From Patescibacteria group bacterium (GTDB lineage Bacteria; Patescibacteriota; Patescibacteriia; UBA1558; UBA10009), in assembly GCA_041662565.1 (NCBI GenBank), contig JBAZSE010000001.1, positions 65,084-129,083 of the forward strand: a stretch of DNA of 64,000 nucleotides, in the 5' to 3' direction. Below the pieces are notes generated by a model. It saw only the letters and a program-made list of their open reading frames with translations. It was not told the origin of the DNA and made no database searches. The translations under genes were made by a program, and so were the position numbers. Below, one piece after another: positions 6,768-53,196 of the stretch (within the stretch, counting starts at the first letter, position 1; every line of letters begins with the position of its first letter).

Positions 6768-6781
6768 ATTAATTTAAACAA

Positions 6782-6815
6782 AAAACCCTTTGAAATATTT
6801 CAAAGGGTTTTTGTT
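6782..6815. terminator. bidirectional rho-independent terminator between convergent genes
   Basis: AAACCCTTTGAAATATTTCAAAGGGTTT is a perfect palindromic hairpin flanked by A-run and T-run. It sits between 5724..6767 (+) and pnp (-). Confidence 0.7.
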
Positions 6816-6819
6816 TTGT

Positions 6820-21912: not shown

Positions 21913-22004
21913 ATCGCCCTTGACAATCAGCTTAAAATTTTGTTAAGTTCAGATTGTTTATTGTAAATTCACACACCCCAAAACCCTATTACTATGAGGT
22001 TGCA

Positions 22005-23066: not shown

Positions 23067-23089
23067 GTCGGTTGAACTTCAACCGTTTC

Positions 23090-23127
23090 CGGTTAGTCAA
23101 GCAATTGTTTGGCTAACCGTTTTTTTA
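23090..23127 (+). terminator. rho-independent terminator after buk
   Basis: CGGTTAG..16 nt..CTAACCG followed by TTTTTTT. Confidence 0.5.
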
Positions 23128-23136
23128 TTTACGGAA

Positions 23137-23166
23137 TAAAAAAACCTGTTCCATGAGGAACAGGTT
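23137..23166 (-). terminator. rho-independent terminator for the minus-strand 635-aa gene
   Basis: ACCTGTTCC atga GGAACAGGT is preceded on the + strand by an A-run, which is a T-run on the minus strand. Confidence 0.6.
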
Positions 23167-23173
23167 GGTTAAA

Positions 23174-32056: not shown

Positions 32057-33388
32057 ATGTTTATTAAAAAGTTTTTAGCTATTTTGGCTTTAGCCATCCA
32101 CTTGCCGATAATTTTTTATTTCTGGCTTTTCGGTTCCGGTGATTTATTAAGAAGCGGGCAATCCGATATGATGTTGATTGCTTTAGGCAGAATTTCCGGT
32201 TTACTGGCTGTATTTTTTATTTTGCTTCAGCTGATTTTTATCGGGCGGGTAAAATGGCTGGAAAAATTATTTGGCTTGGATAAGTTATCAATTTGGCACC
32301 ACTTAAACGGCATTTTTGCCTTGATTTTTATTTTGGCTCATCCTATTTTATTAATGCTGGGTTATGGACAATTAACTGGGCACGGTTTTTTTAACCAGCT
32401 TTTTGAGGCGATTTTAAATGGTGATGATTTGTTTGGCGCTTTTGTGGCCGTATTAATTTTTTTAGGTACGGTTATAATTTCGGCAACATTTATCCGAAAA
32501 TATTTAAATTACGAAAAATGGCATTTTTTGCATTTAGCCACCTACGCCGCAATTTTAATGGCTTTTGGCCACCAGTTGGAATTGGGCGGGGATTTCCATA
32601 ATCAGCTGTTTGTTTATTATTGGTACGCTTTGTATTTTGGAGTTTTTGGCCAGCTTATTTGGTATCGTTTTTTAACCCCGCTGGTTAATTTTTTTAAGCA
32701 CGGTTTTTACGTGGATAAATTAGAAGAAGAATTGCCTGGCGTGCTTTCGTGTTATATTAAAGGCAAAGATTTATCCTCTTTTAAAGCTCAGGCCGGTCAA
32801 TTTATGATTGTCAGATTTTTAAACCAAAAAATCTGGTGGCAGGCACATCCTTTTTCCATTTCTTGTCCGCCTTCGGGCCAATACCTGCGTTTAACCATTA
32901 AAGCCCTGGGCGATTTTACCAAAACTTTAAAAAATAATCTTAAAGCCGGCGATAAAGTTTTGTTGGATGGGCCGCACGGCGTGTTTACTTTAAAATCTTC
33001 CAAGCAGGATAAATTATTGTTTATTGCCGGCGGAGTTGGTATTACGCCTATCAGAGCGGTATTGGAAGAGGCCTTATTGGCTGGGCGGCAGGCCATTTTA
33101 CTTTATGGCAATCGCACGGCTACGGATATTATTTTTAAAACGGAACTGGATAAATTAAAACAAGAACATCAATTTGGGCTTCATTATATTATTAGTGATG
33201 ACCCTTCTTGGGCAGGCGAACAAGGCCGGCTTGATTTGGCAAAAATCAGCCAGTTAGCACCCGATGCTGGCACGCGCGAGGTTTATTTGTGCGGCCCTGC
33301 CGCTATGATGAAATCGGTTAGGCAATCATTGGCTAAACTTAAGGTGCCAAAAGGTCAAATCCATTTTGAAAAGTTTTCTTTAGGATAA
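32057..33388 (+). CDS. ferric-reductase-like transmembrane domain fused to FAD/NAD(P)-binding oxidoreductase domain
   Basis: An N-terminal 6-TM domain carries conserved His residues. The FNR-like domain has motifs HPFSIS and GGVGITPIRAVL. Confidence 0.75.
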   Translation: MFIKKFLAILALAIHLPIIFYFWLFGSGDLLRSGQSDMMLIALGRISGLLAVFFILLQLIFIGRVKWLEKLFGLDKLSIWHHLNGIFALIFILAHPILLMLGYGQLTGHGFFNQLFEAILNGDDLFGAFVAVLIFLGTVIISATFIRKYLNYEKWHFLHLATYAAILMAFGHQLELGGDFHNQLFVYYWYALYFGVFGQLIWYRFLTPLVNFFKHGFYVDKLEEELPGVLSCYIKGKDLSSFKAQAGQFMIVRFLNQKIWWQAHPFSISCPPSGQYLRLTIKALGDFTKTLKNNLKAGDKVLLDGPHGVFTLKSSKQDKLLFIAGGVGITPIRAVLEEALLAGRQAILLYGNRTATDIIFKTELDKLKQEHQFGLHYIISDDPSWAGEQGRLDLAKISQLAPDAGTREVYLCGPAAMMKSVRQSLAKLKVPKGQIHFEKFSLG

Positions 33389-33696
33389 CGAGCCAGCAGA
33401 CGAAAGATTTTATTTTTATTTATTAACACCTTGCATCTTTTCAAATATATAATATAATATAAATAGATTTTAAAAATTAAAAATAAAATACTTGTCCTCC
33501 GAAGCTCAAAGAGCGAAGGGGGAAAAATTATTTTTTAACCCATAAATCCTAATTCTTGGATTAGTATGATTCTATCATGAAAGATATTGACGAGGTCGGG
33601 GGGATAATGCCTCAGCTAAAGTTAGATCAACAATCAATCATTAAGCTTCCTGCAAAGTCGGTTTTATAGCTGGCTTTTTTCTTTTTAAAAATAACT

Positions 33697-36105
33697 ATGA
33701 ACTATTCCAATGGCAATGAACCGTTAAACAACCACACGATTTTGGTGGTTAATACCGGTTCGGCCAAAAAAAAATTTATCTTGCAGCGTCTTAAGGCCTT
33801 GGGCCTAAAAATCGTTGTTTTAAACAAGGAAAAAAATTGGGCCGAACCGTTTGTTGATCACTGGATTTTAGCCGACACCTTTAATCACGTGGAAGCGGTG
33901 GCCGCTGTTAAAGCATTTATGGCCGCCAATTTGGACGTAAAAATAGAAGGCGCTTTAACTTTTTGGGAAGATGATGTGTTGCTGGCTTCTAAAATAGCCG
34001 ATAAGTTTAATTTTATCGGCATCCCGTTTAATGTGGCCAAAAAAGCCAGGAATAAATTTTTGTTTAGGGAATTTTGCGCACTGCATGGCTTAAAAACACC
34101 GGCTCACTCTTTGGTAAAAAATAACGAAGATCTAAATTATATTGTCCAGAATTTTAAATTCCCTTTGGTTATTAAGCCAACCTACGGCTCTTCGAGCGCT
34201 TACGTTATTAAGCTGGAAAATCAAGAAGAGTTGTTTAACACTTATCAATATTTAAAAAAGAACATTTCCACGGATGTAGAATCGGCTTTAACCGATGGCG
34301 TGGAAATTTTAGTGGAAGAATATATTGATGGCGATGAAGTGGATATTGATATTGTTTTGCAAAATGGCAAAATAAAATTTTTTTCCATTTCCGATAATGA
34401 TAAAACCAATGAACCGTTTTTTGTGGAAACCGGCCAATCAATTCCTTCCGGTTTGCCCGAACGCACGCAAAGCGAATTGATTGAAATGGCCGAAGAAACA
34501 TTGGAAAAAATGGGTGTTCAAAACGGCGTAATTCATTTTGAAGCCAAGGCCGGCAAAAACGGCACTGTGCCCATTGAGGCCAACTTGCGTATGGGTGGCG
34601 ATGAAGTTCATTCTTTTGTTAAAGGTGCCTGGGGCGTGGATTTAATCGAATGCGCCGTAAAAATTGCGTTGGGTGTTCATATTCCCAAAATCCATCGGCC
34701 GGTTTCTCCCCGCAAATATTTAACCGGCAAATATTTTTTAAACGATAATTCTGGCATTTTGGTTAAAATGGACGTGGTAGAAGATTTGAAAAAAAATCCC
34801 AATGTGGAAGAAATTCATTTTTTTAAGGAAATCGGAGATGCCATTTTGGTGCCGCCGGAGGGTTATGAATTTTTGGGCTGGGTTGTGGTTTCGGGCTATA
34901 ATCGCCTGGATGCCCAAGATAATTTGCGCGAAATCGCTTCAAAAATTCATTTTGACGTGGTTAAATTTGACAGCGATTCGGCTTTAGGCCGCACTTCCCG
35001 CAAAAGCCGTTTTTCTTCGGCCGTACTTAACAAAACTTTGCTAACCAGGGCGGCTCGGCTGGAAAAATTAAGAAGCGTATCCAAAGATAATCAGGGCAAG
35101 CTTAAAATCGGCGTTTTGGGAAATTCATCTGATGAAAATCAGGAGAGCTGGGAAAAATCTTTAGCTAAGGTAAGTGAAGAAGTGGTTGCCTCTCTAAAAA
35201 CCAAGGGCTATCAAGTTACCTTTTTTGATTCATCGGATTTTCCTAAAGTAGTTACTGATTTAAAAAAGAGCGATGTTGATTTGGTTTTTAATTTGGCCGA
35301 AAAAATCAACCAGTCGGCTTTGGCCAAATCCGATATCACTTCTGTCTTGGAGGCCTTGCAAATTCCTTACACCGGCTCTTCGCCCTTAACTTTGGCTTTG
35401 GCCCAGGATAAAATAAAGTTTAAAAAAATGCTGGCCTTCCATAATATTCCCACAGCCCGTTGGGATTACGCCTATAGCCCCGATGATGATATTGATGAAT
35501 CATTGCGTTATCCCTTAATCGTTAAGCCGGCAGGGGGTGATCATTCTTTGGGCATTAACAATCAGTCGGTTGTTAATAATAAAGAAGAGCTTAAAACCCA
35601 GCTAGTTTTTGTAACCGAGCGTTTAGGTTCGCCGGCTTTGGTGGAAGAATATATAGAAGGCGATGAATATGATGTCTCTATTTTGGGCAGTAATTTTGAC
35701 GATTTTGAAGTTCTGCCACTCTCGCGGACCATTTTTAAAAATCTGCCAGTTGAGTATAAAAATATTTACACTTTTGAAGCAAAATGGGGGACAAATCCGA
35801 TTTATAACGATATTATTGTCCAGCAACCGCCTAAAAATATCCCTAAAAAGCTGGAAACTCTGTTGACGGAAATTGCCTTGGATACCTATAATATTCTGGA
35901 TTGCCAGGATTACGGCCGGGTGGATATCCGCGTAGATCAAAACGACAATCCTTACGTTTTGGAACTTAATGCCAATCCATCGCTCGCGCCCGATGCGCGC
36001 ATTCCTTCGTCGGCTAAAATTTTAGGCATTGATTACAGCGATTTGCTGGTAGAAATTATCACCTTGGCTATTAAGCGCTATCAGCAAAAACCAAAAAACT
36101 TTTAA
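33697..36105 (+). CDS. tandem ATP-grasp ligase (N-terminal ATP-grasp module plus C-terminal D-Ala-D-Ala-ligase-like ATP-grasp module)
   Basis: N-terminal half: PLVIKPTYGSSSAYV and EEYIDGDEVDIDIV..IEANLRMGG. C-terminal half: DLVFNLAE..ALQIPYTGSSPLTLALAQDKIKFKKML..PLIVKPAGGDHSLGI..EEYIEGDEYDVSILG..ELNANPSLAPD. Confidence 0.75.
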   Translation: MNYSNGNEPLNNHTILVVNTGSAKKKFILQRLKALGLKIVVLNKEKNWAEPFVDHWILADTFNHVEAVAAVKAFMAANLDVKIEGALTFWEDDVLLASKIADKFNFIGIPFNVAKKARNKFLFREFCALHGLKTPAHSLVKNNEDLNYIVQNFKFPLVIKPTYGSSSAYVIKLENQEELFNTYQYLKKNISTDVESALTDGVEILVEEYIDGDEVDIDIVLQNGKIKFFSISDNDKTNEPFFVETGQSIPSGLPERTQSELIEMAEETLEKMGVQNGVIHFEAKAGKNGTVPIEANLRMGGDEVHSFVKGAWGVDLIECAVKIALGVHIPKIHRPVSPRKYLTGKYFLNDNSGILVKMDVVEDLKKNPNVEEIHFFKEIGDAILVPPEGYEFLGWVVVSGYNRLDAQDNLREIASKIHFDVVKFDSDSALGRTSRKSRFSSAVLNKTLLTRAARLEKLRSVSKDNQGKLKIGVLGNSSDENQESWEKSLAKVSEEVVASLKTKGYQVTFFDSSDFPKVVTDLKKSDVDLVFNLAEKINQSALAKSDITSVLEALQIPYTGSSPLTLALAQDKIKFKKMLAFHNIPTARWDYAYSPDDDIDESLRYPLIVKPAGGDHSLGINNQSVVNNKEELKTQLVFVTERLGSPALVEEYIEGDEYDVSILGSNFDDFEVLPLSRTIFKNLPVEYKNIYTFEAKWGTNPIYNDIIVQQPPKNIPKKLETLLTEIALDTYNILDCQDYGRVDIRVDQNDNPYVLELNANPSLAPDARIPSSAKILGIDYSDLLVEIITLAIKRYQQKPKNF

Positions 36106-36115
36106 TTTTAAATTA

Positions 36116-38008
36116 ATGAATAAACATATGGCACCAAGATTCGGCGAATCGTTTAACCCCGATCAAGGGAGCAGGGTTAATGTTTTAGATCAAGAAGCCA
36201 AAGTTCCGGAATACGTGGAATTTGGCCGCAACATCAGAAGTTTGCTTAAAGGTCAGGATCAAGAAACGGGTGAGATAAAAACCAACTGGCCGGAGTGTCC
36301 TAAAAATTTACATAATCTTGAAGATCTGCTAATAGCCAGTCAGGATGCAGTAACTAGTGAGTGGGAAAAAGTGGTCGCTCCTTTATTACAAGAGAAAGCT
36401 CAGGAGTGGATTGCTAGTATTCCAGATGATGAAGAGCATCAGGATTTAATTAAGTTGTTGGCTAACCCTCAAGAGTTTGATAATAATATTAAAACCCAAC
36501 AGTTAGGGGTGTTAGAAGGTTTAAAACAGTTTTCGCCCGAAGCTTGGCGTTCTTTAGTATTAGTTTCTTCGGAAAGGCAACTAGCTTGTCTATCTTTATT
36601 AAGACACTGGTTAAAAAACGATTTAAGCGAAGATGATTTGCAAAAGATAGGAATGACCAAAGTGGAATTGGAAATTTTATTGGATGCTGGAGGAATTTTG
36701 GGTAAGTATATTGATCATGCTTATGTTAAACAAATAGAATTGGCCGATGAACCAGGAGGAACCTCGGCCACCAAATTAGGACAAAAAAAGGGCGCTGAAT
36801 TTATCTATGATATTTATCGTTCGGCTGACGGCAATGAAGTTGATCATAAGGCATTTTCAACGGTTTTTGCCGGAGAATGGCCAAAAATTGTCGATGGTCT
36901 AAAAATGCTTTCTCATAAAGTTGAAGCCCTGATAACAGAATATAAATTACCAGAAAGTTATAAAAAATTGCCACCTTACCTGGATCACTTAATCAGTATT
37001 TATGCCTCTCAAGAAACTTCGCCTAAAAAGATTTTTGATTTGTGGAATGAGTTAGATTTAAAAATGAATGAACTAGCGGCCAACGGTTGTCCGTTAATGA
37101 TTATTCCAGGGTTTTGCGTGGGGGTGACTAGTGATGCTAATAAGGTGGATGTGGAATTAAGATTGGGTTTCAGGACACCGGAAATTAAAGAACTAGAAGG
37201 TTTAATGGATAACTTTAGAGAGATTGCGCAAAATATTTTAGACGGTCATCAGGATAAATTAGCTAAAGCTTATAAAATACCCAGGATGGTTTTAAACGTC
37301 CAGCCATTTGGCTTTGGTAGCAGCTTGCAACTTTTTACTTTGGCGGAAACGGGCAATAATAGAATGGTTTCCCATGTTAATCTTAATAATCAAATGGCTT
37401 TAAAGGGCCATTGGCCGATTATAGAAAAGGCCTTTTCTATGGATGATCTAAATATGACCCAAGAAGAATATAAAGAGGCGATTAATTTGGAAACTGCTTT
37501 GCATGAAATTGGCCATAATGTTATGCCCACTGAAGATGAGGCAGTTTTAAAAAGAGTAGGCGGTGGAGCTGACGGCACCGTTTTAGAAGAGTTAAAAGCC
37601 GAAGGAGTTGGTATGCTTATTTTTATGAAGAGTTTAGAAGATAAAACTCCAGAGGAAGCGGAAGAGGCAATTAAAAAAGAATTTTTTGTTAAATTAATAA
37701 CCGCCTGTGATTATTTGGCTAATAATTCTTCTGATAAAGGATCGGATGGCGAGAGGTATTATTATTCCGGTTTAGCTATGATTGATCGGCTTTTAGTTAG
37801 TGGCGCGATTACTATGGAAAATGGGCGTTATCATATTATAGATGCCTCTAAAGGAGTGGAAAGTATAGCTAGGTTAGGTCAAGAAATATTGGACAGATTT
37901 TATCTAAGTGAGAATTCTGGTAAAAAAGAGGTTAAAGATTATATAGGTTCTTTAAGGAAGAAAAAAAATGCACCTGAAATTCAAGCTTTCAAAACGGGTC
38001 TTAAATGA
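36116..38008 (+). CDS. hypothetical protein with HExxH motif (possible zinc-dependent hydrolase or ligand-binding protein)
   Basis: ORF of 630 aa with LHEIGHNV at ~aa 455. It lies within the ATP-grasp operon. Confidence 0.45.
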   Translation: MNKHMAPRFGESFNPDQGSRVNVLDQEAKVPEYVEFGRNIRSLLKGQDQETGEIKTNWPECPKNLHNLEDLLIASQDAVTSEWEKVVAPLLQEKAQEWIASIPDDEEHQDLIKLLANPQEFDNNIKTQQLGVLEGLKQFSPEAWRSLVLVSSERQLACLSLLRHWLKNDLSEDDLQKIGMTKVELEILLDAGGILGKYIDHAYVKQIELADEPGGTSATKLGQKKGAEFIYDIYRSADGNEVDHKAFSTVFAGEWPKIVDGLKMLSHKVEALITEYKLPESYKKLPPYLDHLISIYASQETSPKKIFDLWNELDLKMNELAANGCPLMIIPGFCVGVTSDANKVDVELRLGFRTPEIKELEGLMDNFREIAQNILDGHQDKLAKAYKIPRMVLNVQPFGFGSSLQLFTLAETGNNRMVSHVNLNNQMALKGHWPIIEKAFSMDDLNMTQEEYKEAINLETALHEIGHNVMPTEDEAVLKRVGGGADGTVLEELKAEGVGMLIFMKSLEDKTPEEAEEAIKKEFFVKLITACDYLANNSSDKGSDGERYYYSGLAMIDRLLVSGAITMENGRYHIIDASKGVESIARLGQEILDRFYLSENSGKKEVKDYIGSLRKKKNAPEIQAFKTGLK

Positions 38009-38039
38009 TGAGGCAAAATAAAAAATAGTAATAAATAGC

Positions 38040-39341
38040 ATGAAAAAAATTAAATTTTTATTTGTTTCGGCCGATAATTTAATAGGCAATATTGCTTGGC
38101 ATGTTTATCAAGAAGGCCATTTGGTTAAATATTGCAATGATCATAAAGGTGAAGAAGATTTATTGGACGGTTTTTTGCCAAAAGTAAAAAATTGGCGCAA
38201 ATATATTGATTGGGCCGATGTTATTGTTTTTGATGAAGTTTTTGGTTATGGGAAAATCGCCGAAAAATTAAGAGCCCAGGGCAAGCTTGTTTTAGGCGGC
38301 ACCGCTTACACCGATAGCTTGGAGGAAGATCGTTCCTTTGGCCAGCAGGAACTTAAAAAAGCCGGTGTGCCTATTTTGCCATATTATGAATTTAATAGTT
38401 GTTCTTCCGCCAATCGTTATTTAAAAAAACACCCTGGTCAATATGTGGTTAAGGTTTGCGGCAAGATGCAGAATGATAAAAATCTGGTTTATGTTGGCCA
38501 GTTAACGGATGGTTCGGATGTTAGACAAATGCTGGAATTGTATCAAGAAAGGCACGGCAAAAAAATAACCAGTTTGATTTTGCAAAAAAAGGTAAATGGC
38601 GTAGAAATAGCCCTCGGCGCTTTTTTTAACGGGCAAAAATTTGTTTATCCCATTAACCTTAATTTTGAACATAAAAAATTATTCCCCGGCGACCTTGGCC
38701 CCAACACCGGTGAAATAGGTACTCATATGTTTTGGGCCGAGCCGAACGTTGTTTTTGATAGGACTTTAAAAAAAATGGAAGGTAGATTGCGCGAAGTTGG
38801 TTATCATGGTTGCATTGATTTGGCCTGCATTGTTAATGGCCAGGGCATTTATCCTTTGGAATTTACCGCCCGTTTTTGTTTTCCAACCATAAATATCCAG
38901 TATGAAGGACTAAAGATGCCGGTTAGCGATTTTTTATATAAACTGGCTTTGGGCGAGGATTTTAAAATTAAAACCAAAAAAGGTTTTCAAGTCGGTATTA
39001 GGGTTTTAGTGCCCCCTAACCCTTATCGCAATCAGGAAATTTTTAATGCTTATGCAAAAGGCGTTAGGGTAATGTTTAAAGATCCTAAAAAAATGACCGG
39101 TGTTCACTTGGAAGACGTTAAAAAAATTAAAGGTAAATGGGTTATTACAGGTAGCTGTGGCAATGTTTTAATAATTGTTGGAACGGGCAAAACCATGCCA
39201 GCAGCGCAAAAGCAAGTTTATCAGAGGGTAAAAAATGTTATTATCCCCAATATGTATTACCGTAATGATGTTGGTGATCGTTGGTACAAAGAAAAAGATA
39301 AATTAGCCAAATGGGGCTATCTAAAAACAGTAAAATATTAG
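38040..39341 (+). CDS. ATP-grasp enzyme, PurD (glycinamide ribonucleotide synthetase)-like
   Basis: ..YVVKVCGKMQNDKNLVYV..GDLGPNTGEIGT.. echoes the PurD GDxGPNTGGMG signature and shows an ATP-grasp A/B/C arrangement. Confidence 0.6.
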   Translation: MKKIKFLFVSADNLIGNIAWHVYQEGHLVKYCNDHKGEEDLLDGFLPKVKNWRKYIDWADVIVFDEVFGYGKIAEKLRAQGKLVLGGTAYTDSLEEDRSFGQQELKKAGVPILPYYEFNSCSSANRYLKKHPGQYVVKVCGKMQNDKNLVYVGQLTDGSDVRQMLELYQERHGKKITSLILQKKVNGVEIALGAFFNGQKFVYPINLNFEHKKLFPGDLGPNTGEIGTHMFWAEPNVVFDRTLKKMEGRLREVGYHGCIDLACIVNGQGIYPLEFTARFCFPTINIQYEGLKMPVSDFLYKLALGEDFKIKTKKGFQVGIRVLVPPNPYRNQEIFNAYAKGVRVMFKDPKKMTGVHLEDVKKIKGKWVITGSCGNVLIIVGTGKTMPAAQKQVYQRVKNVIIPNMYYRNDVGDRWYKEKDKLAKWGYLKTVKY

Positions 39342-39343
39342 CC

Positions 39344-40714
39344 ATGAAAAAAAAGTTGGATTTTTCTTACCGTTTATCGGCAAGTGGCTTTAAAGTTAAT
39401 GTATTTAAGGGCGTTGATTTTGCCGTTCATTTTCCCGGGCGTATTTTTTCTCAGTTGCCACAAGCGACCAAATATTTTTTGGTTGATAATTTTATCTATT
39501 CCCGAACCCGCGCTTTAAATTTACTGGATTGGCAGTTGTCGTACCAGTTTGGGCGCCCGGCTTGGCAAAATTTTATTGATTTTGGCTTAAAAAAAATTAT
39601 TCCTTGTTTGGGCGAAATCAATAATTTTAATATAGATAAAATTTTAAAAAAATTTCCATTGGCCGAATCGGCAAAAAATTTGGTTTTTAATGGTAATCAG
39701 AGTGTTGCTCGGCTGGCTGGTTTTAAAAGTTTAAAAGATCGGGCGGTTTTGGCTTTATCTTTTGGCAAAGATAGCATTTTGTCTTATGGCTTAGCTAAAG
39801 AGCTGGGCTTAAATTTATTATTGGCTACGGCTAACGAAATGGAAAATTCTTCCGGCAATGAGTGGAAAATAAAAAGCCGGATTATTAAGGATTTTGAATC
39901 GGAACAGGGCGAACAGGTTTATCTTTTTAGCGATAATGTGGATGAACTTTATTATCATCCTAAAATAAATTGCCATTTGTCCGAAGTTAATAATACCAAC
40001 AGTTTATTGGCTTATGCTTTGGAGTTTTTGCCCTTTGTTTACCAACACCGCTCCGCTTATCTGATTTTTGGCAATGAACAAAATTTAAACGACTATTTTG
40101 TTAATCAGCAGGGCTTTAAGTTTTATCCTTCGTTTGATCAGTCCTCCGAATACACCGCCAAGGAAAACTCCTTGTGGTCTAAAGCGTCAAAGGGTAAATT
40201 CAAAGTTATTAGTTTAGTGGAACCATTATATAATTTGGGAGAGTTTAGGGTTTTATATCATCGTTATCCGCATTTGTTAAAATACGTTATGTCTTGCGAG
40301 CCGGATAAGGGTTCTGCCGAACGATGGTGTTATCATTGCCCGATGTGTGCCAAGGCCTTTTTATACAGTTCGGCCGTTGGCGGCGATCCCAAACGCATTG
40401 CTTTTAATAAAGATTTTTTTGCCAAAAAATACAGCGAGCATTATCCTTTATTCGCCAAAAAAAAGTTAAGGCATTATGAGCGCCCGCCACAAGTTAGAGA
40501 AGAGCAGTTGCTCTCGTTTTTACTCTGTTACCAACAGGGATTAAAAGGAGATTTAATCGATTTATTTAAAAAGCATTACTTAGCCGAAGCCATAACCAAA
40601 GAAAAATCCTTAAGAAAAGTTTATTTAGGTGTTCATCCGGCAATTAATTTGCCCGGCGGTTTAAAAACAAAAATTATTAAAATTTTTAAAGAAGAATTAA
40701 AAGGTTTGAATTAA
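39344..40714 (+). CDS. PP-loop (N-type ATP pyrophosphatase) family protein with C-terminal Cys cluster
   Basis: LALSFGKDSILSYG is an SGGxDS-like PP-loop. CYHCPMC lies near the C-terminus. I prefer the ATG at 39344, immediately after the upstream stop, over the overlapping 39311. Confidence 0.5.
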   Translation: MKKKLDFSYRLSASGFKVNVFKGVDFAVHFPGRIFSQLPQATKYFLVDNFIYSRTRALNLLDWQLSYQFGRPAWQNFIDFGLKKIIPCLGEINNFNIDKILKKFPLAESAKNLVFNGNQSVARLAGFKSLKDRAVLALSFGKDSILSYGLAKELGLNLLLATANEMENSSGNEWKIKSRIIKDFESEQGEQVYLFSDNVDELYYHPKINCHLSEVNNTNSLLAYALEFLPFVYQHRSAYLIFGNEQNLNDYFVNQQGFKFYPSFDQSSEYTAKENSLWSKASKGKFKVISLVEPLYNLGEFRVLYHRYPHLLKYVMSCEPDKGSAERWCYHCPMCAKAFLYSSAVGGDPKRIAFNKDFFAKKYSEHYPLFAKKKLRHYERPPQVREEQLLSFLLCYQQGLKGDLIDLFKKHYLAEAITKEKSLRKVYLGVHPAINLPGGLKTKIIKIFKEELKGLN

Positions 40715-40720
40715 CTTTCT

Positions 40721-42061
40721 ATGCCCAAGCAGGAAAAAGAAAAAACAGCTATTTTAATCAACAGTCCGGAAGTTTTGTTTTTATCCCATAAGGATTTGGC
40801 AAATATTTACGTGGTGGTTTTTAAAAATAGCCCATTGGCGCATTTGGCAAAGAAAAATTTTTCTGCCAGCCGTTTGATTTATATCAAGCAAAAAAGCCAG
40901 TCAGAAATAAATGAAGCCCCTTCGGTGGAATTTGGCGATTTGATTTCCAAAACCGATTTAACAGTTAAGCTATTAAAATATCAAATAAAGAATTTTTTAA
41001 TTCCTTATCGCAGTTCTAAAAAAATTGAACTTTGGGCCAAAAAATACAATTTTTGCTTGTTAGTTACTCCCTTGGCAACTCAGGATAAATTGGAAGATAA
41101 AAAATATTTTGATAATTTTTTAAAAAAGAACCAAATAACCTCGCCTTGTACACTAAGCTTAAAAGATTTTAAAAAATTAGCGGCCAATAACTTGCCTTAT
41201 GTTGTCCAAGAGGCAAAGTTATCGGATTATTTTAGGACAAAGTTTTATTTAACCGGCCGACAGTTATTTGTCGATTGGCAAAAAAACAAACTTAAATTGG
41301 ATAAAGTTGTGGCGCGCGAGTATTTGGAGGGTTTACCGGTTGGAGTAAGTATTTTTTTGGATCAAACGGGCAATTATTTTTTTTCCGCCTTAAGAACTCA
41401 ATGTTTTTATTATGGCCGGAACGGTTTTCCTAAAAGCTTTATGGGTTTGCAGTGGTTGCCTAGAAAGTTTTTTAACCCAAAAACTCTTTTGAACATAAAC
41501 TTTCAACTTAAAAAATTAACTCAGGCCTTAATTAAAGAAAAATTCTTTGGAGTGGCAAACGTCGATTTTATTATAAAAAATAATCGGGCATTTATTTTAG
41601 AATGCAACCCCAGATTGTCCGTGGCTACGCCGCAGGTTTTTTCCAGTTTTAAACTAGCTTCTTATTCCAAGTCGTGGTTATTTTTTCTTAATACTTTTAC
41701 CTATAAGCTTAATGCCAACATTTGCCGGCCATGTTTGCCCCAATCAAGTTTTAGCGGAGCGGTTTTGGCCTTGGAAGCGGAAAAACCCTTGCGACTTGTT
41801 AAAATTCCCCCTGTCGGCACTTATCAAATAAAAGAAAATAAGGTAAAATTTATCAGCCATAAGATAGTTGATTTAAGGCAATCGGGCGCATTTTTTTTAT
41901 ATCACGAACTTTTTTTAGGCCAGAGTTTAAAGAAGGGCTATGATTTATGCAAAGTTTTTAGCAACCTTCCTTTATTTGATTTTAAAACAGGGATGTTAAA
42001 TAAAAACGGTCGAACCATTTTTGATTATTTTAATGATTATTTTTATGCCCACAAAAATTAG
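40721..42061 (+). CDS. ATP-grasp-like ligase (divergent)
   Basis: VVAREYLEGLPVGVSIFL and ANVDFIIKNNRAFILECNPRLS (E-x-N catalytic region) are consistent with the ATP-grasp fold. Confidence 0.45.
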   Translation: MPKQEKEKTAILINSPEVLFLSHKDLANIYVVVFKNSPLAHLAKKNFSASRLIYIKQKSQSEINEAPSVEFGDLISKTDLTVKLLKYQIKNFLIPYRSSKKIELWAKKYNFCLLVTPLATQDKLEDKKYFDNFLKKNQITSPCTLSLKDFKKLAANNLPYVVQEAKLSDYFRTKFYLTGRQLFVDWQKNKLKLDKVVAREYLEGLPVGVSIFLDQTGNYFFSALRTQCFYYGRNGFPKSFMGLQWLPRKFFNPKTLLNINFQLKKLTQALIKEKFFGVANVDFIIKNNRAFILECNPRLSVATPQVFSSFKLASYSKSWLFFLNTFTYKLNANICRPCLPQSSFSGAVLALEAEKPLRLVKIPPVGTYQIKENKVKFISHKIVDLRQSGAFFLYHELFLGQSLKKGYDLCKVFSNLPLFDFKTGMLNKNGRTIFDYFNDYFYAHKN

Positions 42062-43400
42062 GGAATTTTTAACTAGCAAACAAGAGTTGTTGCAATGGCA
42101 AACCAAAATTAATCGGGCATTATCTACCAAAGCCAGCGTCTATCTTGGCAATTTAACTCCTGTCGTAGCCAAATTTTATTCGGCCAAAAAGGCATCTCTT
42201 TTGGCGTTAGCAAAAAGATATCCCACACCTTTTTACGCTTTTGATAAAATCGAGTTAACAACCAGCGCGGCAGATTTTAAACGCGCCTTTGCCAAGTATT
42301 TGCCAAATTGTTCCTATTTTTATGCAGTCAAAACCAATTGGCATCCCAGTATTTTAAAAACCGTAGTGGATTGCGGTTTTGGCTTGGATGTTTCCAGCGG
42401 CCGGGAATTATCTCTTGGTTTAAAAGCCAAAGCTAAAAAAATGGTTTTTTCCGGTCCCGGTAAAACAACCGCAGATTTGTTATTGGCTTTAAAACATCGC
42501 CATAAAGTTATCGTGCATTTGGATAGTTTTGGCGAGTTGGAGCGTTTGGGTAAATTGTCTTCTTTAAAAAAGCAAACTATTGTGGCTGGAGTAAGAATTT
42601 ACACTCGTTTTCATGGCAGTTGGAGTAAGTTTGGTATTAAGCTTAATGATCTAAGCTATTTTTGGAAGGAAGCGAAAAAATATCCATATCTTAAGTTATC
42701 AGGAATCCAATTCCACATCAGTTGGAATAAAGACGCCAGCACCTATGAAAATGTTATTAAAGAATTGGCCGGTTATTTGAAAAAGAATTTTTCTACTTCC
42801 GATTTATCAGACATAAAATTTATTGATTTTGGCGGCGGTTTTTTGCCTTATCGTTTAACCGGCGATTATCCTTGGGGAACGGCGCAGGGCGATCTTATTA
42901 AAAAAGCAGCCGATCATTTTGATGGCGAACCTAAATTTAATCGGGGCTATTATTTAACCGAATCCGTTACCTTGCCCGAGTACGCTCGGGGCATTGCCCA
43001 AGCCATTAACCGATATCTACGGCCGTTGATTAATTGCCGTTATTTTACCGAGCCGGGTAGGATTATCTGTAATAACTCCATGCATTTGGTAACTCGAGTA
43101 GTAGATATTAAAGATAGCAATAAGATAATCATGGATTCCGGAGTTAACGCGGTTGGCTGGGAGGGCTTAAGGTATGATTATACGCCGGTAATTAATTTAA
43201 GTTCTTTTGCCAAAAAGGAAATTCCCTGTTATGTTTTTGGTAGTTTGTGCATGGCCGATGATGTTTGGAGTTATTCCATGTACGCCTCAAAAATCAATTC
43301 GGGCGATGTTACGGTTATTCCTAATTTTGGCGCCTATACTTTTGCTTTGTCACAAGAATTTATTAAGGGCGTGCCCAAAGTTTATCCGCTTAAAAATTAA
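42021..43400 (+). CDS. PLP-dependent decarboxylase, Orn/DAP/Arg decarboxylase family (alanine-racemase fold)
   Basis: FYAFDKIEL..YAVKTNWHPSILKTVVDCGFGLDVSSGRELSLGL, plus a C-terminal beta-domain. It overlaps the upstream gene; an alternative start is M9. Confidence 0.8.
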   Translation: MIILMIIFMPTKIREFLTSKQELLQWQTKINRALSTKASVYLGNLTPVVAKFYSAKKASLLALAKRYPTPFYAFDKIELTTSAADFKRAFAKYLPNCSYFYAVKTNWHPSILKTVVDCGFGLDVSSGRELSLGLKAKAKKMVFSGPGKTTADLLLALKHRHKVIVHLDSFGELERLGKLSSLKKQTIVAGVRIYTRFHGSWSKFGIKLNDLSYFWKEAKKYPYLKLSGIQFHISWNKDASTYENVIKELAGYLKKNFSTSDLSDIKFIDFGGGFLPYRLTGDYPWGTAQGDLIKKAADHFDGEPKFNRGYYLTESVTLPEYARGIAQAINRYLRPLINCRYFTEPGRIICNNSMHLVTRVVDIKDSNKIIMDSGVNAVGWEGLRYDYTPVINLSSFAKKEIPCYVFGSLCMADDVWSYSMYASKINSGDVTVIPNFGAYTFALSQEFIKGVPKVYPLKN

Positions 43401-43411
43401 AATCGAAAAAT

Positions 43412-43906
43412 ATGATCGAGAATGAGTATTTTACAGTTAAACAATCGGCTATTCATCATACCGGAGCTTTTGCCAAACAAGCTATTCCTGCCGGCACTAA
43501 AGTTATTGAATATATCGGCGAAAAAATTTCTAAATCGGAAAGCGAAAAAAGATCGGATTTGTCATTAGAAAAATCACGAACTAATCCGGGGGAGTATGGA
43601 GGTATTTATATTTTTGAATTAAATGATGAATTTGATTTGGATGGCGATATTCCAGAAAATTTAGCCAGGCACATTAATCATTCTTGTGAACCTAATTGTT
43701 TTTACCAATATATCGACGGGCATATTTGGATAGTGGCAAAAAGAGATATTAAGGAAGATGAAGAATTGACTTTTAATTACGGCTTTGATTTTGATCTTGA
43801 AGATTATTTTTTATATCCTTGCAAATGCGGTTCTGCCAAATGCGTCGGTTATATACTTAAAGAAGAGGATTGGCCTAAAATTCCCAACCATCAAAAAAAT
43901 TCCTAG
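43412..43906 (+). CDS. SET-domain protein (putative lysine methyltransferase)
   Basis: NHSCEPNC and ELTFNYGFDF, with a post-SET CxCxxxxC. Confidence 0.8.
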   Translation: MIENEYFTVKQSAIHHTGAFAKQAIPAGTKVIEYIGEKISKSESEKRSDLSLEKSRTNPGEYGGIYIFELNDEFDLDGDIPENLARHINHSCEPNCFYQYIDGHIWIVAKRDIKEDEELTFNYGFDFDLEDYFLYPCKCGSAKCVGYILKEEDWPKIPNHQKNS

Positions 43907-43910
43907 CCAT

Positions 43911-43939
43911 TGACATAAAAAATTTACCATGCTATCATA
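43911..43939 (+). promoter_or_regulatory. sigma70-like promoter for the small acidic ORF
   Basis: TTGACA, a 17-nt spacer, then TATCAT. Confidence 0.45.
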
Positions 43940-44010: not shown

Positions 44011-44127
44011 ATGTCAGACGACATGCAAAATGACGATGTAACCGAAGAAGAGGAAGAAGAAATGGATGATGAAGAAGAAACTGAAGATGATGATGAAGAA
44101 GAGGAAGAAGACGAAGACGAAAACTAA
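44011..44127 (+). CDS. small hyper-acidic protein (38 aa, >70% Asp/Glu)
   Basis: MSDDMQNDDVTEEEEEEMDDEEETEDDDEEEEEDEDEN. It is flanked by a promoter and a strong terminator, and is below the ORF-track cutoff. Confidence 0.4.
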   Translation: MSDDMQNDDVTEEEEEEMDDEEETEDDDEEEEEDEDEN

Positions 44128-44130
44128 ATT

Positions 44131-44167
44131 CAAAAAATCCCCCTAATTTTAGGGGGATTTTTTTATT
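44131..44167. terminator. bidirectional rho-independent terminator
   Basis: ATCCCCCT aatttt AGGGGGAT is flanked by A6 and T7. It sits between the acidic ORF (+) and the zinc-ribbon ORF (-). Confidence 0.75.
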
Positions 44168-44179
44168 TGTAGCAATAGT

Positions 44180-44350
44180 TTAAAACTGCCTTCTGGGGCC
44201 TTCTTGCTTTCTGGCCTTGTGGCAATCTCTGCAGTATAAAGGCCTATCGCCATCCGGTTCAAATGGCAACTCGGTAATAGCGGCTTGGCACTGCGAGCAC
44301 GACCAATTGCCCTGGACTTTTGGCCTTGGGGCAAAATTGTCTTGGTTCAT
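44180..44350 (-). CDS. possible zinc-ribbon small protein (56 aa)
   Basis: MNQDNFAPRPKVQGNWSCSQCQAAITELPFEPDGDRPLYCRDCHKARKQEGPRRQF has the CxxC..17 aa..CxxC pattern. It converges on the bidirectional terminator. It competes with the low-complexity track ORFs 44149..44334 (-) and 44217..44408 (+). Confidence 0.35.
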   Translation of the reverse strand: MNQDNFAPRPKVQGNWSCSQCQAAITELPFEPDGDRPLYCRDCHKARKQEGPRRQF

Positions 44351-51408: not shown

Positions 51409-53196
51409 ATGAAACAAAAAAAAATGTTCTTGGTAATCGCGCTTATTACCAGTTTAATTATTCCCTCTGGTTTGATCAAAGCCGAAGTTAACCAGGCAAC
51501 CATAAATTATTTGCAAAACGCCAGCCAAAGCGCTTGGATTACCCAGGCTCTAAAAGCCGCGGGTAGCAATAATTTAAATTTGGATTATTTGGCAGATTTT
51601 GAACCGGCTAACGCCAATGATGCGGCCAAGGCAGTTTTGGCGATTATTGCCGGCGGTGGCAATCCTTACAGTTATCATGGCGATAATTACGTTGGTGGGT
51701 TGTTAAGCTACGCGCAAAACAATCAGATCGGTTCTACTTCTTTGATTAATGATGATTTTTGGGGCATTTTGGCGCTAAGGGCTGCAGGTGAGCCAGTTGA
51801 TTCGGCCATTATTGTCGGTAGTAAAAATTTTATCCTAGCCGCGCAAAATAATGATGGCGGTTGGAGCTGGGCGCCTGATTCCGAAAGCGATACCAATGAT
51901 ACCGCCGCCTCTATTATGGCTTTACTGGAGGCAGGGCTTAATAACGATTCCCAAGATATTCAACAAGCCATTAATTATCTGCGAGAAGCGCAAAATGAAG
52001 ATGGCGGTTTTCCTTTTTCTTCCGGCGAATCGGATTCCGGTTCCGATGCTTGGGTAATTGCCGCTTTAAATAAATTGGGCATTAGCCCCGAAACTTGGAG
52101 TGTTGGCAATAACAATCCAATTGCCCATTTGGGGTCATTAATGCTTAATGACGGATCTTTTAAATGGCTTTCTTCGGATAATCAGGGCAACTTAACTATG
52201 ACGGCTTTTGCGGCCGTAGCTTTAGCGGGTAAATTTTTCCCCGTGGCAACATATCAACCCCCGGCCGATCAGAATCTTCATCATTTAAGAATTGAAGGTG
52301 CCACCAGCACTATTTGTAATGCCCAGGTGGAAGGACAAACAGCGCAACAAGTTTTGGAAAACGGCGCCGAAATTTGCAACTACACTTACCATATTCAAAC
52401 TACCGATTGGGGCCCTTATTTGGATAAAATAAATAATGATCAAGCCGAGGGCCAAAACGGTTGGTTGTATCGGGTTAATTGGTTAAGCGCCCAAGTAGGG
52501 ATGGCCAATTATAATTTAGCAGCCGGAGATGAGGTGTTGTTCTATTTTGCCTATTGGGAAGATCAGCCCTTGCGCCTTTCTTTAAGTGCCTCGCAAGCTA
52601 ACCCCGGAGATAATATCACGGCCACGGTGGAATATTTTAATGAACAATCATGGCTGCCGGCAGTTGGCACATTGGTGCTGGTTGCTGATCGCGAATACCA
52701 AACCAACAATCAGGGGCAAGCGATTTTTTCTGCACCCCAAGATGGCAGTTATGTTGTTTATGCCCAAGGCGATCATAAAGTTCGTTCACCCAAACAGGTT
52801 TTAATTGTGGGACAAGGTAGCGCCAATGGTGTGGTTTTAAACGTGGATGTTGCCAATAACGCGCCTGTAGAGCAAGAAGAAGAAAACGCCGGCGCTTTGG
52901 TTTTTAGAGTTAATGTTGATCATTTGGATTTTGGCAGTTTGCGCCCGGGCGGACAGTTAAACCGCAGTTTAACCATTACCAACCAAAGCGCCGATAATAT
53001 GTATTTGGAAGGTATAGTTTCGGGCGATGCTTTGTTTGAAAATAATGTGATGCTGGATGATCAAATTTGGGAAAATTACAATAAAACCTTAGCCAGAAAT
53101 GAAGCCGTAAATATTGGAGTTAAATTAATCGTGCCGCAAAATTACAGTAATGGCCATTATAGCGCCAATTTGGTTTTATGGGGTTCGGCCCGTTAA
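51409..53196 (+). CDS. secreted protein: prenyltransferase-like alpha-toroid repeats plus DUF4430-like beta domain (transcobalamin-like architecture) plus extra beta domains
   Basis: After a signal peptide, the Q-x-x-DGG(W/F) repeats read AQNNDGGWSWAPD, AQNEDGGFPFSSG and LNDGSFKWL. The segment QQVLENGAEIC..YLDKINNDQAEGQNGWLYRVNWLSAQVGMANYNLAAGDEVLFYF is homologous to the stand-alone protein 54441..54890. Confidence 0.6.
   Translation: MKQKKMFLVIALITSLIIPSGLIKAEVNQATINYLQNASQSAWITQALKAAGSNNLNLDYLADFEPANANDAAKAVLAIIAGGGNPYSYHGDNYVGGLLSYAQNNQIGSTSLINDDFWGILALRAAGEPVDSAIIVGSKNFILAAQNNDGGWSWAPDSESDTNDTAASIMALLEAGLNNDSQDIQQAINYLREAQNEDGGFPFSSGESDSGSDAWVIAALNKLGISPETWSVGNNNPIAHLGSLMLNDGSFKWLSSDNQGNLTMTAFAAVALAGKFFPVATYQPPADQNLHHLRIEGATSTICNAQVEGQTAQQVLENGAEICNYTYHIQTTDWGPYLDKINNDQAEGQNGWLYRVNWLSAQVGMANYNLAAGDEVLFYFAYWEDQPLRLSLSASQANPGDNITATVEYFNEQSWLPAVGTLVLVADREYQTNNQGQAIFSAPQDGSYVVYAQGDHKVRSPKQVLIVGQGSANGVVLNVDVANNAPVEQEEENAGALVFRVNVDHLDFGSLRPGGQLNRSLTITNQSADNMYLEGIVSGDALFENNVMLDDQIWENYNKTLARNEAVNIGVKLIVPQNYSNGHYSANLVLWGSAR

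Follow-up and report, generated by a model that had tools for sequence, protein, structure and literature searches.

A gene cluster of CPR bacteria and DPANN archaea that joins a QueC-like enzyme to Ddl-type ATP-grasp ligases and may assemble a lysine-derived pseudopeptide

Genes of the operon

The window analysed here is a 64,000-nt stretch of the genome of a Patescibacteria group bacterium (GenBank assembly GCA_041662565.1, contig JBAZSE010000001.1, positions 65,084 to 129,083), a member of the Candidate Phyla Radiation (CPR). Its positions 33697-43906 carry seven open reading frames (ORFs) on the plus strand, named g1 to g7, which encode ATP-grasp ligases, a QueC-like PP-loop enzyme, a decarboxylase, a metalloenzyme and a SET-domain methyltransferase. 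From g1 to g7 the ORFs are spaced by 10, 31, 2 and 6 nt, then overlap by 17-41 nt (g5/g6) and are separated by a last gap of 11 nt. This packing (2-31 nt gaps or overlap) is operon-like. A first-pass annotation made from the sequence alone had described a co-directional, single-strand operon with short gaps and overlaps, which the ORF coordinates bear out. It had counted eight genes where there are seven plus-strand ORFs; a two-module fusion was probably counted twice. All of the motifs that it quoted are found in the ORF translations.

The first gene, g1 (33697-36105, 802 aa), encodes two fused ATP-grasp ligases, an L-amino acid ligase (LAL) module at about aa 1-425 and a D-Ala-D-Ala-ligase (Ddl)-like module at about aa 470-802. 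The Pfam matches are ATP-grasp_4 (104 bits), LAL_C2 (50.3 bits, cut-off 29.4) and Dala_Dala_lig_C (124.8 bits), and the PDB matches are the L-amino acid ligase BL00235 (E=4e-33, aa 25-419), BacD (E=9e-16) and Ddl (E=2e-26, aa 488-791). The presence of ATP-grasp and LAL_C2 domains together with similarity to characterised LALs suggests that the first module is an L-amino acid ligase. The Ddl domain is not a stand-alone protein, being placed behind the LAL module, and g1 scores below the Ddl cut-offs (NF002378, 208.1 vs 243; TIGR01205, 152.4 vs 245.65). RimK matches of g1 were only secondary in the Pfam and NCBIfam scan. A pseudomurein ligase set was considered and rejected (Ddl_archaea, 73.7 bits vs a cut-off of 500). 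Cyanophycin synthetase was also rejected (60.9 bits vs 877), and the cyanophycin-like polymer named as a product by the first-pass annotation has no specific support.

The third gene, g3 (38040-39341, 433 aa), encodes a PurD-like ATP-grasp carboxylate-amine ligase with Pfam matches to GARS_A (58 bits) and GARS_C (38.5 bits); the GARS_N domain was not detected in the Pfam scan. The best PDB match to a PurD has E=1e-22, and the score against the PurD model TIGR00877 is 112.1 vs a cut-off of 288. The N-terminus reads FVSADNLIGN at the position where E. coli PurD has the motif GxGGREHA. These features suggest that g3 is not a bona fide PurD. Among the related loci (numbered with the prefix L and described below), a g3 gene adjoins the cluster in L010, L012, L014, L073 and L075. 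The PurD-like gene beside g4 in L010 (10118-12445, Jorgensenbacteria) encodes 775 aa and contains an intein with a LAGLIDADG homing-endonuclease domain.

The remaining ligase, g5 (40721-42061, 446 aa), is a divergent ATP-grasp protein. Its Pfam match to ATP-grasp_3 is marginal (26.4 bits vs a cut-off of 23.2), and the best match in a profile search of the PDB is the ATP-grasp domain of carbamoyl-phosphate synthetase (CPSase; E=1.5e-7). The Mg site, D282 and E294-x-N296-P-R298, is invariant in 13 homologues. With two modules in g1 and one each in g3 and g5, the four ATP-grasp modules of the first-pass annotation are all accounted for by domain matches. The ATP-grasps of the operon are LAL-, Ddl-, PurD- and CPSase-like and belong neither to the RimK nor to the graspetide type.

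The signature gene of the cluster is g4 (39344-40714, 456 aa; the ORF opens at 39311), which encodes a QueC-family PP-loop ATP pyrophosphatase with its core at about aa 130-340. In an alignment of 23 homologues the S, G, K and S of the PP-loop S139-F-G-K-D-S144 are invariant and the D is at least 90% conserved. A C-terminal four-cysteine zinc site formed by C318, C329, C332 and C335 (C-x10-C-x2-C-x2-C) is also invariant. The protein has no Pfam, NCBIfam or PDB sequence match. It does not match QueC (PF06508) at E<=1, and weak matches to this family occur in five of the 23 homologues (best E=1.8e-5). The predicted structure has a QueC fold, with QueC and Cap9, in that order, as the best fold matches. 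Because of the SxGKDS PP-loop and the four-cysteine site in the family alignment, g4 is read as a QueC-family adenylating enzyme with N- and C-terminal domains of its own. It is about 230 residues longer than the QueC family proteins, and it lies below the PF06508 threshold. The PP-loop assignment of the first-pass annotation is therefore supported by the family alignment and the fold and not by Pfam. A sequence identical to g4 has been deposited from a Patescibacteria (CPR) metagenome-assembled genome under the label hypothetical protein.

The likeness of g4 to QueC raises the possibility of a peptidyl-7-deazapurine pathway, in which g4 would keep 7-carboxy-7-deazaguanine (CDG) as its substrate and join it to lysine as an amide, with extension by ATP-grasp enzymes as in roseomycin. 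In roseomycin biosynthesis the QueC homologue RoyL amide-links CDG to L-lysine in a cluster that contains ATP-grasp enzymes (bioRxiv 10.64898/2026.04.15.718813), and Cap9 joins a deazaguanine carboxylate to a protein amine (10.1101/2025.04.06.647259). These precedents, the two best fold matches of g4, and the DPANN versions of the cluster, which point to lysine-type building blocks, all favour such a pathway. However, it is rated as highly improbable since deazaguanine genes are not linked to g4: none of the neighbourhoods examined shows a folE, queD, queE or TGT-like gene. In contrast to QueC, Cap9, QatC and RoyL, g4 is linked to Ddl-type ligases and not to deazaguanine or defence genes, and its extra domains and its score under the Pfam QueC threshold also set it apart. 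PADLOC, which covers QatABCD, type IV CBASS and other defence systems, gave no relevant match for any of the seven proteins. A Ddl-linked context is not mentioned in a 2026 survey of the QueC family (PMC13329287).

The decarboxylase gene g6 ends at 43400 and has two candidate starts. The TTG at 42021 opens the ORF (459 aa), and the ATG at 42045 (451 aa) fits the lengths of the homologues. The protein is a fold-III pyridoxal phosphate (PLP) decarboxylase of the LysA/FslC/BtrK type. Matches to PF02784 (Orn_Arg_deC_N, 94.8 bits) and PF00278 (34.2 bits) agree with the PLP decarboxylase named in the first-pass annotation. The score is 146.6 against LysA (TIGR01048, cut-off 297.9) and 100.7 against FslC, and the protein is under every curated cut-off. 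The PDB matches include diaminopimelate (DAP) decarboxylase (E=1.5e-26), the N-citrylornithine decarboxylase FslC (E=2.6e-22), BtrK (E=1e-12) and D-Orn/D-Lys decarboxylase. The PLP lysine K104 (YAVKTN), the HxS, GGG and EPGR motifs and the catalytic cysteine C410 (LCxxD) are conserved in 26 family members. The catalytic-cysteine motif reads LCMADD in g6 and CESGD in LysA, and the stretch between GGG and EPGR appears longer in g6 than the aligned stretch in the DAP decarboxylase 2p3e. The LysA-like fold-III PLP type is shared with BtrK (acting on Glu-S-BtrI), FslC (acting on N-citrylornithine) and TabA, which are pathway decarboxylases. In the BtrK/BtrJ and FslC systems, ligated or tethered intermediates are decarboxylated beside ATP-dependent ligases.

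The last gene, g7 (43412-43906, 164 aa), encodes a SET-domain methyltransferase (PF00856, 84.7 bits vs 22.4), as the first-pass annotation had it. The translation contains NHSCEPN and the post-SET motif C-x-C-x4-C. In the close relatives L073 and L075 a SET gene also lies within the cluster, at varying positions, and there are weak matches near L022, L023 and L064. In L015 a GntF/NNMT-like N-methyltransferase takes the place of the SET gene.

The HExxH protein of the first-pass annotation is encoded by g2 (36116-38008, 630 aa), and its assignment is borne out and narrowed to a metalloenzyme with a dipeptidyl peptidase III (DPP III, M49)-like fold. The motifs are HEIGH at aa 463-467 and EELKAE at aa 491-496; H463ExxH467 and E492 are invariant in the family alignment. 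The predicted structure has the two-lobe DPP III fold, and its best match is the atypical pentapeptide DPP III of Corallococcus (5zum) at about 13% sequence identity. HEIGH and EELKAE are aligned with HELMH and EEAKAD of 5zum, so the first motif is a pentapeptide as opposed to the canonical HExxGH hexapeptide. No Pfam M49 match and no Pfam or NCBIfam family at E<=0.01 was found for g2, and some homologues weakly match DUF7897. The second-best fold match is PolE (DUF6421), an Fe/pterin oxidase with the DPP III fold and an HExxH-x21-23-E motif, whose substrate is a free amino acid (PMC12614342). The g2 protein is probably a zinc peptidase. This is favoured over an oxidase because the match is better, the EExKAE motif is present and CPR bacteria are mostly anaerobes. 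The g2 family is confined to CPR. A deposited product identical to g2 begins four codons further downstream.

Conservation across CPR and DPANN

A word-indexed search gave about a hundred g4 homologues, all unnamed, from many CPR lineages and from DPANN archaea. An exhaustive profile search with g4 found 172 clusters (50% identity) at E<=1e-30 among 1.84 billion representatives, so the family is rare. The g4 profile found no viral relatives in the IMG/VR viral contigs and therefore carriage by phages is without evidence.

A scan of one genome per species resulted in 65 loci (23 in CPR, 26 in archaea and 16 in other bacteria), and their ORFs were compared with the window proteins. An ATP-grasp gene adjoins the g4 homologue at 20 of the 23 CPR loci; the LAL-Ddl fusion is present at 14 of them, g6 at 13, g5 at 10, g2 at 4, g3 at 3 and a SET gene at 2. 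Among the 26 archaeal (DPANN) loci a Ddl-like ATP-grasp gene, often two, adjoins at 20, a radical S-adenosylmethionine (radical-SAM) aminomutase is found at 15, g6 at 10 and a separate LAL-like ligase at 5. The other bacteria have an adjoining Ddl-like ATP-grasp gene at 6 of 16 loci. Overall g4 is accompanied by g6 in 23 loci. The gene order g4-g1-g5-g6 is recurrent, and g2 sits between g5 and g6 in L011, L024 and L053. Chance falls far short of explaining the arrangement, since dozens of species-level genomes have the same gene set round a g4 homologue. The first-pass reading would have failed if this co-localisation were missing from relatives; the linkage is kept across CPR and DPANN and the reading survives.

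The invariant core of the cluster is the QueC-like PP-loop enzyme with one or more Ddl-type ATP-grasps. A diamino-acid-modifying enzyme (decarboxylase and/or aminomutase) is the usual companion of the core, and the tailoring set is variable. The HExxH (DPP III-like), PurD-like and SET genes are recurrent accessories outside the core. A core with variable tailoring is the behaviour of biosynthetic gene clusters. Accessories of a small-molecule type (aminomutase, epimerase-like, GntF-like, FemAB-like and GNAT) are swapped between sister clusters.

The closest relatives, L073, L075 and L015, have the cluster at the same chromosomal site with genes shuffled or swapped. L073 has a FemAB-like gene in place of g5 and g2; a FemAB-like gene is also present in L005. 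In L075 there is an additional GNAT-like gene along with another paralogue of g4. The extra genes of L015 encode an L-Ala-D/L-Glu epimerase-like protein (172.7 bits), the GntF/NNMT-type N-methyltransferase and a GNAT-like protein.

Tandem QueC-like paralogues were observed in L015 (8581-11332), L017 (9998-12758), L032 (3961-6613), L039 (1581-4357) and L075 (8610-11380), so that some versions of the cluster may carry out two adenylation-type steps. The core is paired with an amino-acid-modifying enzyme in yet a third way in the Spirochaete locus L056 (1266-4911), where the neighbours of a distant g4 homologue are a threonine-synthase-like PLP enzyme (PRK06381, 422 bits) on one side and a Ddl-like ligase on the other.

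The DPANN aminomutase scores 415 bits to KamA (2a5h), and its lysine-binding residues R134, D293 and D330 and its PLP residue K337 are all conserved. Against the AblA model TIGR03820 it scores 508.6 bits (cut-off 525.4), and this AblA-type enzyme is 58-85% identical among DPANN. The conserved residues mark it as a genuine lysine 2,3-aminomutase (LAM), an enzyme that works on free lysine. In Woesearchaeota the aminomutase is fused with a Ddl-like ligase. Because the DPANN clusters encode a genuine LAM, lysine-type units are the likely building blocks of the system.

The possibility that these are ordinary housekeeping Ddl, PurD and LysA genes, adjacent by coincidence, is effectively excluded. 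Ddl, PurD and LysA are indeed the best-named matches, but all of the scores are well under the curated cut-offs; the NCBIfam cut-offs are missed by about 35 bits (g1) and by up to 2.6-fold (g3). The undetected GARS_N domain in g3, the fusion of the Ddl domain to a LAL module, and a linkage with a QueC-like gene that recurs in two domains of life also argue against it. On this count too the first-pass reading stands. All genes of the cluster family are currently annotated as hypothetical or are mis-named Ddl, PurD or LysA.

The same comparison bears on cell-envelope tailoring, in which a murein stem peptide or cross-bridge would be made or edited, with the Ddl-like, FemAB-like and PP-loop (amidation) steps acting as in Asl(fm), MurT/GatD and LtsA. 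The Ddl-like modules are near the cut-off of the Ddl subfamily (208 vs 243), the decarboxylase is LysA-like, FemAB-like genes occur in L073 and L005, and the sister cluster L015 encodes the L-Ala-D/L-Glu epimerase-like protein. However, 26 of the 65 loci are in DPANN archaea, which as a rule have no murein, and the archaeal versions use beta-lysine. No mur gene was found among the scanned window ORFs or the related loci, and no gene for a Mur ligase, MraY, MurG or a flippase was seen in the neighbourhoods examined. The cluster family is also rare whereas murein is common in CPR. It is therefore very improbable that the operon serves the cell envelope, and the murein variant that the first-pass annotation had offered as a product is unlikely.

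Leader and downstream acidic ORF

The leader of about 300 nt seen in the first-pass annotation is present (33389-33696, plus strand); described there only as AT-rich, it holds a conserved candidate promoter, a conserved upstream ORF (uORF) and a terminator-like hairpin. The candidate operon promoter, read from the sequence, is at 33431..33458 on the plus strand and consists of TTGCAT (33431-36), a 16-nt spacer and TATAAT (33453-58). A consensus promoter scan missed it because the -35 hexamer matches at only 3/6 positions. The block CTTGCAT...TATAATATAAT is conserved in the aligned leaders of the window, L073 and L075.

The uORF, MKDIDEVGGIMPQLKLDQQSIIKLPAKSVL, has 30 codons (33577..33669, plus strand), and its stop codon is in the loop of the terminator hairpin. 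A uORF of 29-30 codons is found at the same place in L073, L075 and L015, and the stop stays in the loop though the frame of the window uORF relative to the stem differs. The hairpin and its U-run (33654..33681, plus strand) were detected by the terminator scan and end about 15 nt before the ATG of g1. The 10-bp stem is kept in 4/4 related leaders; its changes are one-sided G-U/A-U changes only, with no compensatory pairs. The only Rfam match in the leader was a single one at chance level (E=0.59), so a known riboswitch is absent, and on the whole window Rfam gave four tRNAs only. RNA folding of the leader is unremarkable overall (z=-1.8), and the conserved part is the terminal hairpin only.

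The uORF and hairpin are a candidate translation-coupled attenuator that may gate expression in this lineage. The uORF is less likely to be a precursor peptide. The layout recalls pyrBI-type attenuators in that the intrinsic terminator just upstream of the first structural gene is entered by a short leader ORF; in the window uORF, by contrast, a regulatory codon run was not identified, the comparison being of four related genomes.

The operon is followed by a small transcription unit of its own kind, predicted from a promoter-like site at 43910..43938 on the plus strand (TTGACA, a 17-nt spacer and TATCAT, with TG; 11/12 in the scan, a consensus match only) and a hyper-acidic ORF, MSDDMQNDDVTEEEEEEMDDEEETEDDDEEEEEDEDEN, at 44011..44127 on the plus strand, which encodes 38 aa with 74% D+E. 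A bidirectional intrinsic terminator with a 14-bp stem (44132..44163, found in the scan of both strands) closes both this ORF and a convergent zinc-finger gene (44180-44350, minus strand, zf_Tbcl_2). Acidic homologues with the motif DD[ML]Q[ND]DD are present in L073 (14188-14328), L075 (16019-16168) and L015 (18092-18232), in each case after the cluster despite the changes in gene order. In Woesearchaeota a 27-aa acidic ORF, MAYEEEYEEYEDEEEYDSGDDDDEDDW, lies at 6252-6335 of L003/L004 (6129-6212 of L041), about 300 nt upstream of the LAM-Ddl fusion (6633-8717). Being unrelated in sequence, it provides a second, independent example of an acidic peptide next to the system. None of the acidic ORFs encodes a Cys, and the C-terminal residues differ (N, N, V, N, W). 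They are present near about 5 of about 66 distinct loci, and at most other loci none was found within 10 kb. For a cationic product, the acidic peptide may serve as carrier, substrate or immunity factor.

These small ORFs bring in a different explanation, namely post-translational or carrier-peptide chemistry. The ligases would add amino acids or amines to the acidic 38-mer, the uORF product, a ribosomal protein or EF-P/aIF5A, after the RimK, TTL, LysX-LysW or scaffold-peptide model; the decarboxylase and the SET enzyme would then work on the appended residue, and its release or trimming would fall to the DPP III-like enzyme. The acidic ORF that directly follows the cluster in four CPR genomes despite rearrangement, the acidic 27-mer before the Woesearchaeota fusion and the conserved uORF directly upstream of g1 are consistent with this. 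So are the SET domain, the FemAB-like gene that stands in for g5 in L073, and the activity of Cap9, the second-best fold match of g4, which modifies a protein N-terminus. However, the acidic ORFs are too sparsely distributed to belong to the conserved core, the peptides have neither a conserved C-terminus nor a zinc ribbon, unlike LysW, and the window peptide has zero Lys for methylation by a SET enzyme. The ATP-grasps, of LAL/Ddl/PurD/CPSase likeness, are not of the RimK or graspetide type. The uORF lacks the graspetide leader signature Phhx(1,2)h (PMC8939145), and its 3' end is constrained by the RNA hairpin. The aminomutase, the dipeptide-epimerase-like protein and the GntF-like methyltransferase act on free small molecules. 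Overall this explanation is unlikely, and the modified protein substrate suggested by the first-pass annotation stays as a minority alternative only.

Two specific systems of this kind were rejected. A graspetide cluster, that is, one for a peptide made by ribosomes and modified after translation (RiPP), has the wrong type of ATP-grasp and the leader motif is missing from the uORF product. A LysW-type carrier system is contradicted by the lack of a zinc ribbon and of a conserved acidic tail.

Flanking genes and other features of the window

The operon is flanked by unrelated genes, namely those for a ferric-reductase-like protein, a zinc finger, a LiaF-like membrane protein, an Exo_endo_phos nuclease-family protein, NifS, Ldh and ribonucleotide reductase. 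The ferric-reductase/NOX-like membrane flavoprotein (32057-33388) is directly upstream of the cluster in the window, L073, L075 and L015; this may be plain synteny or a functional link.

The window also has a region (22001-24000) with 51% G+C compared with about 38-44% around it. An ORF there (21954-23066) matches only the C-terminal half of acetate kinase, and there is a long antisense ORF; the region may be foreign or decayed DNA. Other genes of the window encode a Kazal-type protease-inhibitor-domain protein (34-1152), a Fic protein (16569-17723), a prenyltransferase/squalene-cyclase-like protein with DUF4430 (51409-53196) and a LysM-M23 murein peptidase (56867-58117, minus strand). Large ORFs without a Pfam match are located at 1216-3114, 3272-5602 and 23174-25081.

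Proposed pathway and role

The operon is a lineage-specific elaboration of a cluster conserved in CPR and DPANN. This cluster probably assembles a small cationic pseudopeptide derived from lysine or beta-lysine, template-free and without a ribosome, a non-ribosomal peptide synthetase (NRPS) or a carrier thiol. A probability of roughly 0.55 is assigned to this reading. The enzyme classes, the intact catalytic motifs and the conserved linkage are observed, and the substrates and the order of steps are inferred from them. The evidence favours the novel, ATP-grasp-based, non-ribosomal amide- or peptide-ligating pathway with tailoring that the first-pass annotation had put forward.

In the proposed mechanism the two modules of g1 (one LAL-type, one Ddl-type), together with g5 and g3, would each convert a carboxylate to an acyl-phosphate and then to an amide with an amine, for up to four amide bonds. 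A further carboxylate would be activated by g4 as an acyl-adenylate and coupled to an amine or ammonia, in the manner of QueC, Cap9 and RoyL, to give an amide or possibly an amidine, nitrile or lactam. The decarboxylase g6 would remove the alpha-carboxylate from a diamino-acid unit, probably on a ligated intermediate, and leave a free terminal amine. The SET enzyme g7, or the GntF-like enzyme in L015, would N-methylate a lysine-like amine, and the DPP III-like g2 would trim or mature the short peptide. In the DPANN versions lysine 2,3-aminomutase would supply beta-lysine.

Several observations weigh against the proposed pathway. A transporter gene and an obvious immunity gene are both missing from the operon. 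The classical substrates of SET domains are lysines of proteins. Two conserved small ORFs, the uORF and the acidic peptide, flank the operon, so the chemistry could take place on a peptide. The evidence for lysine units, the aminomutase, comes from DPANN loci and two bacterial loci (L019 and L021), and the window has no aminomutase. The genes for g2 homologues often lie outside the cluster (WC480_00725 and WC480_02755, on one contig, are an example), and g2 may therefore be a general peptidase; it could also be a PolE-like Fe oxidase.

The product might instead belong to primary metabolism and act as a physiological polycation, as a substitute for polyamines or as a compatible solute; an N-acylated derivative of beta-lysine or cadaverine, similar to N-epsilon-acetyl-beta-lysine, would be an example. 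The high conservation of the AblA-type aminomutase among DPANN, the diamine-like end that the decarboxylase would give, the missing transporter and immunity genes, and the synteny of the cluster with neighbouring housekeeping genes on the chromosomes of four related genomes would all suit a metabolite of this kind. However, the family is patchy and very rare, a tailoring set that varies is typical of specialised metabolism, and an osmolyte made by four to five ATP-dependent ligations would be costly. An osmolyte also seems unnecessary in groundwater or lakes, which are suggested as sources by several of the sample or isolate names. A primary metabolite is thus improbable.

The rarity and patchy distribution of the cluster fit an accessory pathway. 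For the lysine-derived pseudopeptide a role as a host- or competitor-directed antimetabolite or signal, of the tabtoxin or bacilysin kind, is tentatively favoured over that of a housekeeping metabolite because its enzyme classes are the ones found in the tabtoxin cluster; the role is the weakest step of the proposal. A wider reading would see here a hitherto unrecognised assembly line of CPR and DPANN that needs no template, in which a new QueC branch and Ddl-type ATP-grasps make a polycationic pseudopeptide from lysine or beta-lysine on or with a hyper-acidic carrier or immunity peptide, under attenuator control, and so mediate the interaction of episymbiont and host. This is speculative and distinctly unlikely.

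A description of the cluster was not found in the searchable literature in the contexts of QueC, ATP-grasp, decarboxylase, DUF6395, aminomutase and beta-lysine. What is new is the cluster itself, the QueC branch that Pfam does not recognise and its tie to Ddl-type ligases, and the distribution over CPR and DPANN. Every enzyme class is already known, as are LAL- and ATP-grasp-based peptide clusters as a kind.

CPR and DPANN genomes are among the smallest known and are described as lacking most biosynthesis. The operon spends about 10 kb on five ATP-consuming ligase activities, about 1% of the genome if the 809-kb contig carrying the identical g2 approximates it, and the same core is retained in two domains of life. 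If the product is secreted or host-directed, it would offer a concrete molecular handle, of which there are few, on the way these episymbionts affect hosts or competitors. A QueC-type adenylating ligase would also join the ATP-grasp toolbox of NRPS-independent peptide synthesis, to the benefit of biocatalysis. Since the genes are mis-named Ddl, PurD and LysA, the finding also corrects metabolic reconstructions that count them as murein, purine or lysine biosynthesis.

Comparison with known systems

The tabtoxin cluster of Pseudomonas syringae encodes TabA (LysA-like but unable to complement lysA), TblS (Asn-synthetase-like), TblF (Ddl-like), TabP (a zinc peptidase), TblA (methylase-like) and a GNAT fusion (PMC3927611). 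It shares with the cluster family a LysA-like decarboxylase that is not LysA, an ATP-pyrophosphatase-type amide former, Ddl-like or LAL ligases, a zinc peptidase (probable in the case of g2), and methylase-like and GNAT genes. The likeness is one of enzyme classes, without demonstrated orthology. The PP-loop enzyme is QueC-type here and Asn-synthetase-type in tabtoxin, and the window cluster differs in having no oxygenase or transporter, in having more ligase modules (4-5) and in belonging to CPR/DPANN hosts with tiny genomes. Other relatives in kind are the LAL-based dipeptide antimetabolites bacilysin (BacD), phaseolotoxin (PhtU) and dapdiamide (DdaF/DdaH); the LAL module of g1 is nearest to L-amino acid ligase and then to BacD.

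The LysW/LysX and RimK-S6 systems also have a small, very acidic polypeptide encoded beside ATP-grasp ligases. The window peptide differs from LysW in that it has no zinc ribbon or EDWGE-like tail and is not conserved across the family, and the ligases are not of the RimK/LysX type.

The DPANN version of the cluster resembles PylB/PylC and AblA/AblB in having a radical-SAM lysine mutase beside, or fused with, a Ddl-like ATP-grasp ligase. PylB differs in not being KamA-type, and AblB is a GNAT and not an ATP-grasp. Beyond what these two systems have, the DPANN clusters encode a QueC-like enzyme, another Ddl-like ligase and a decarboxylase.

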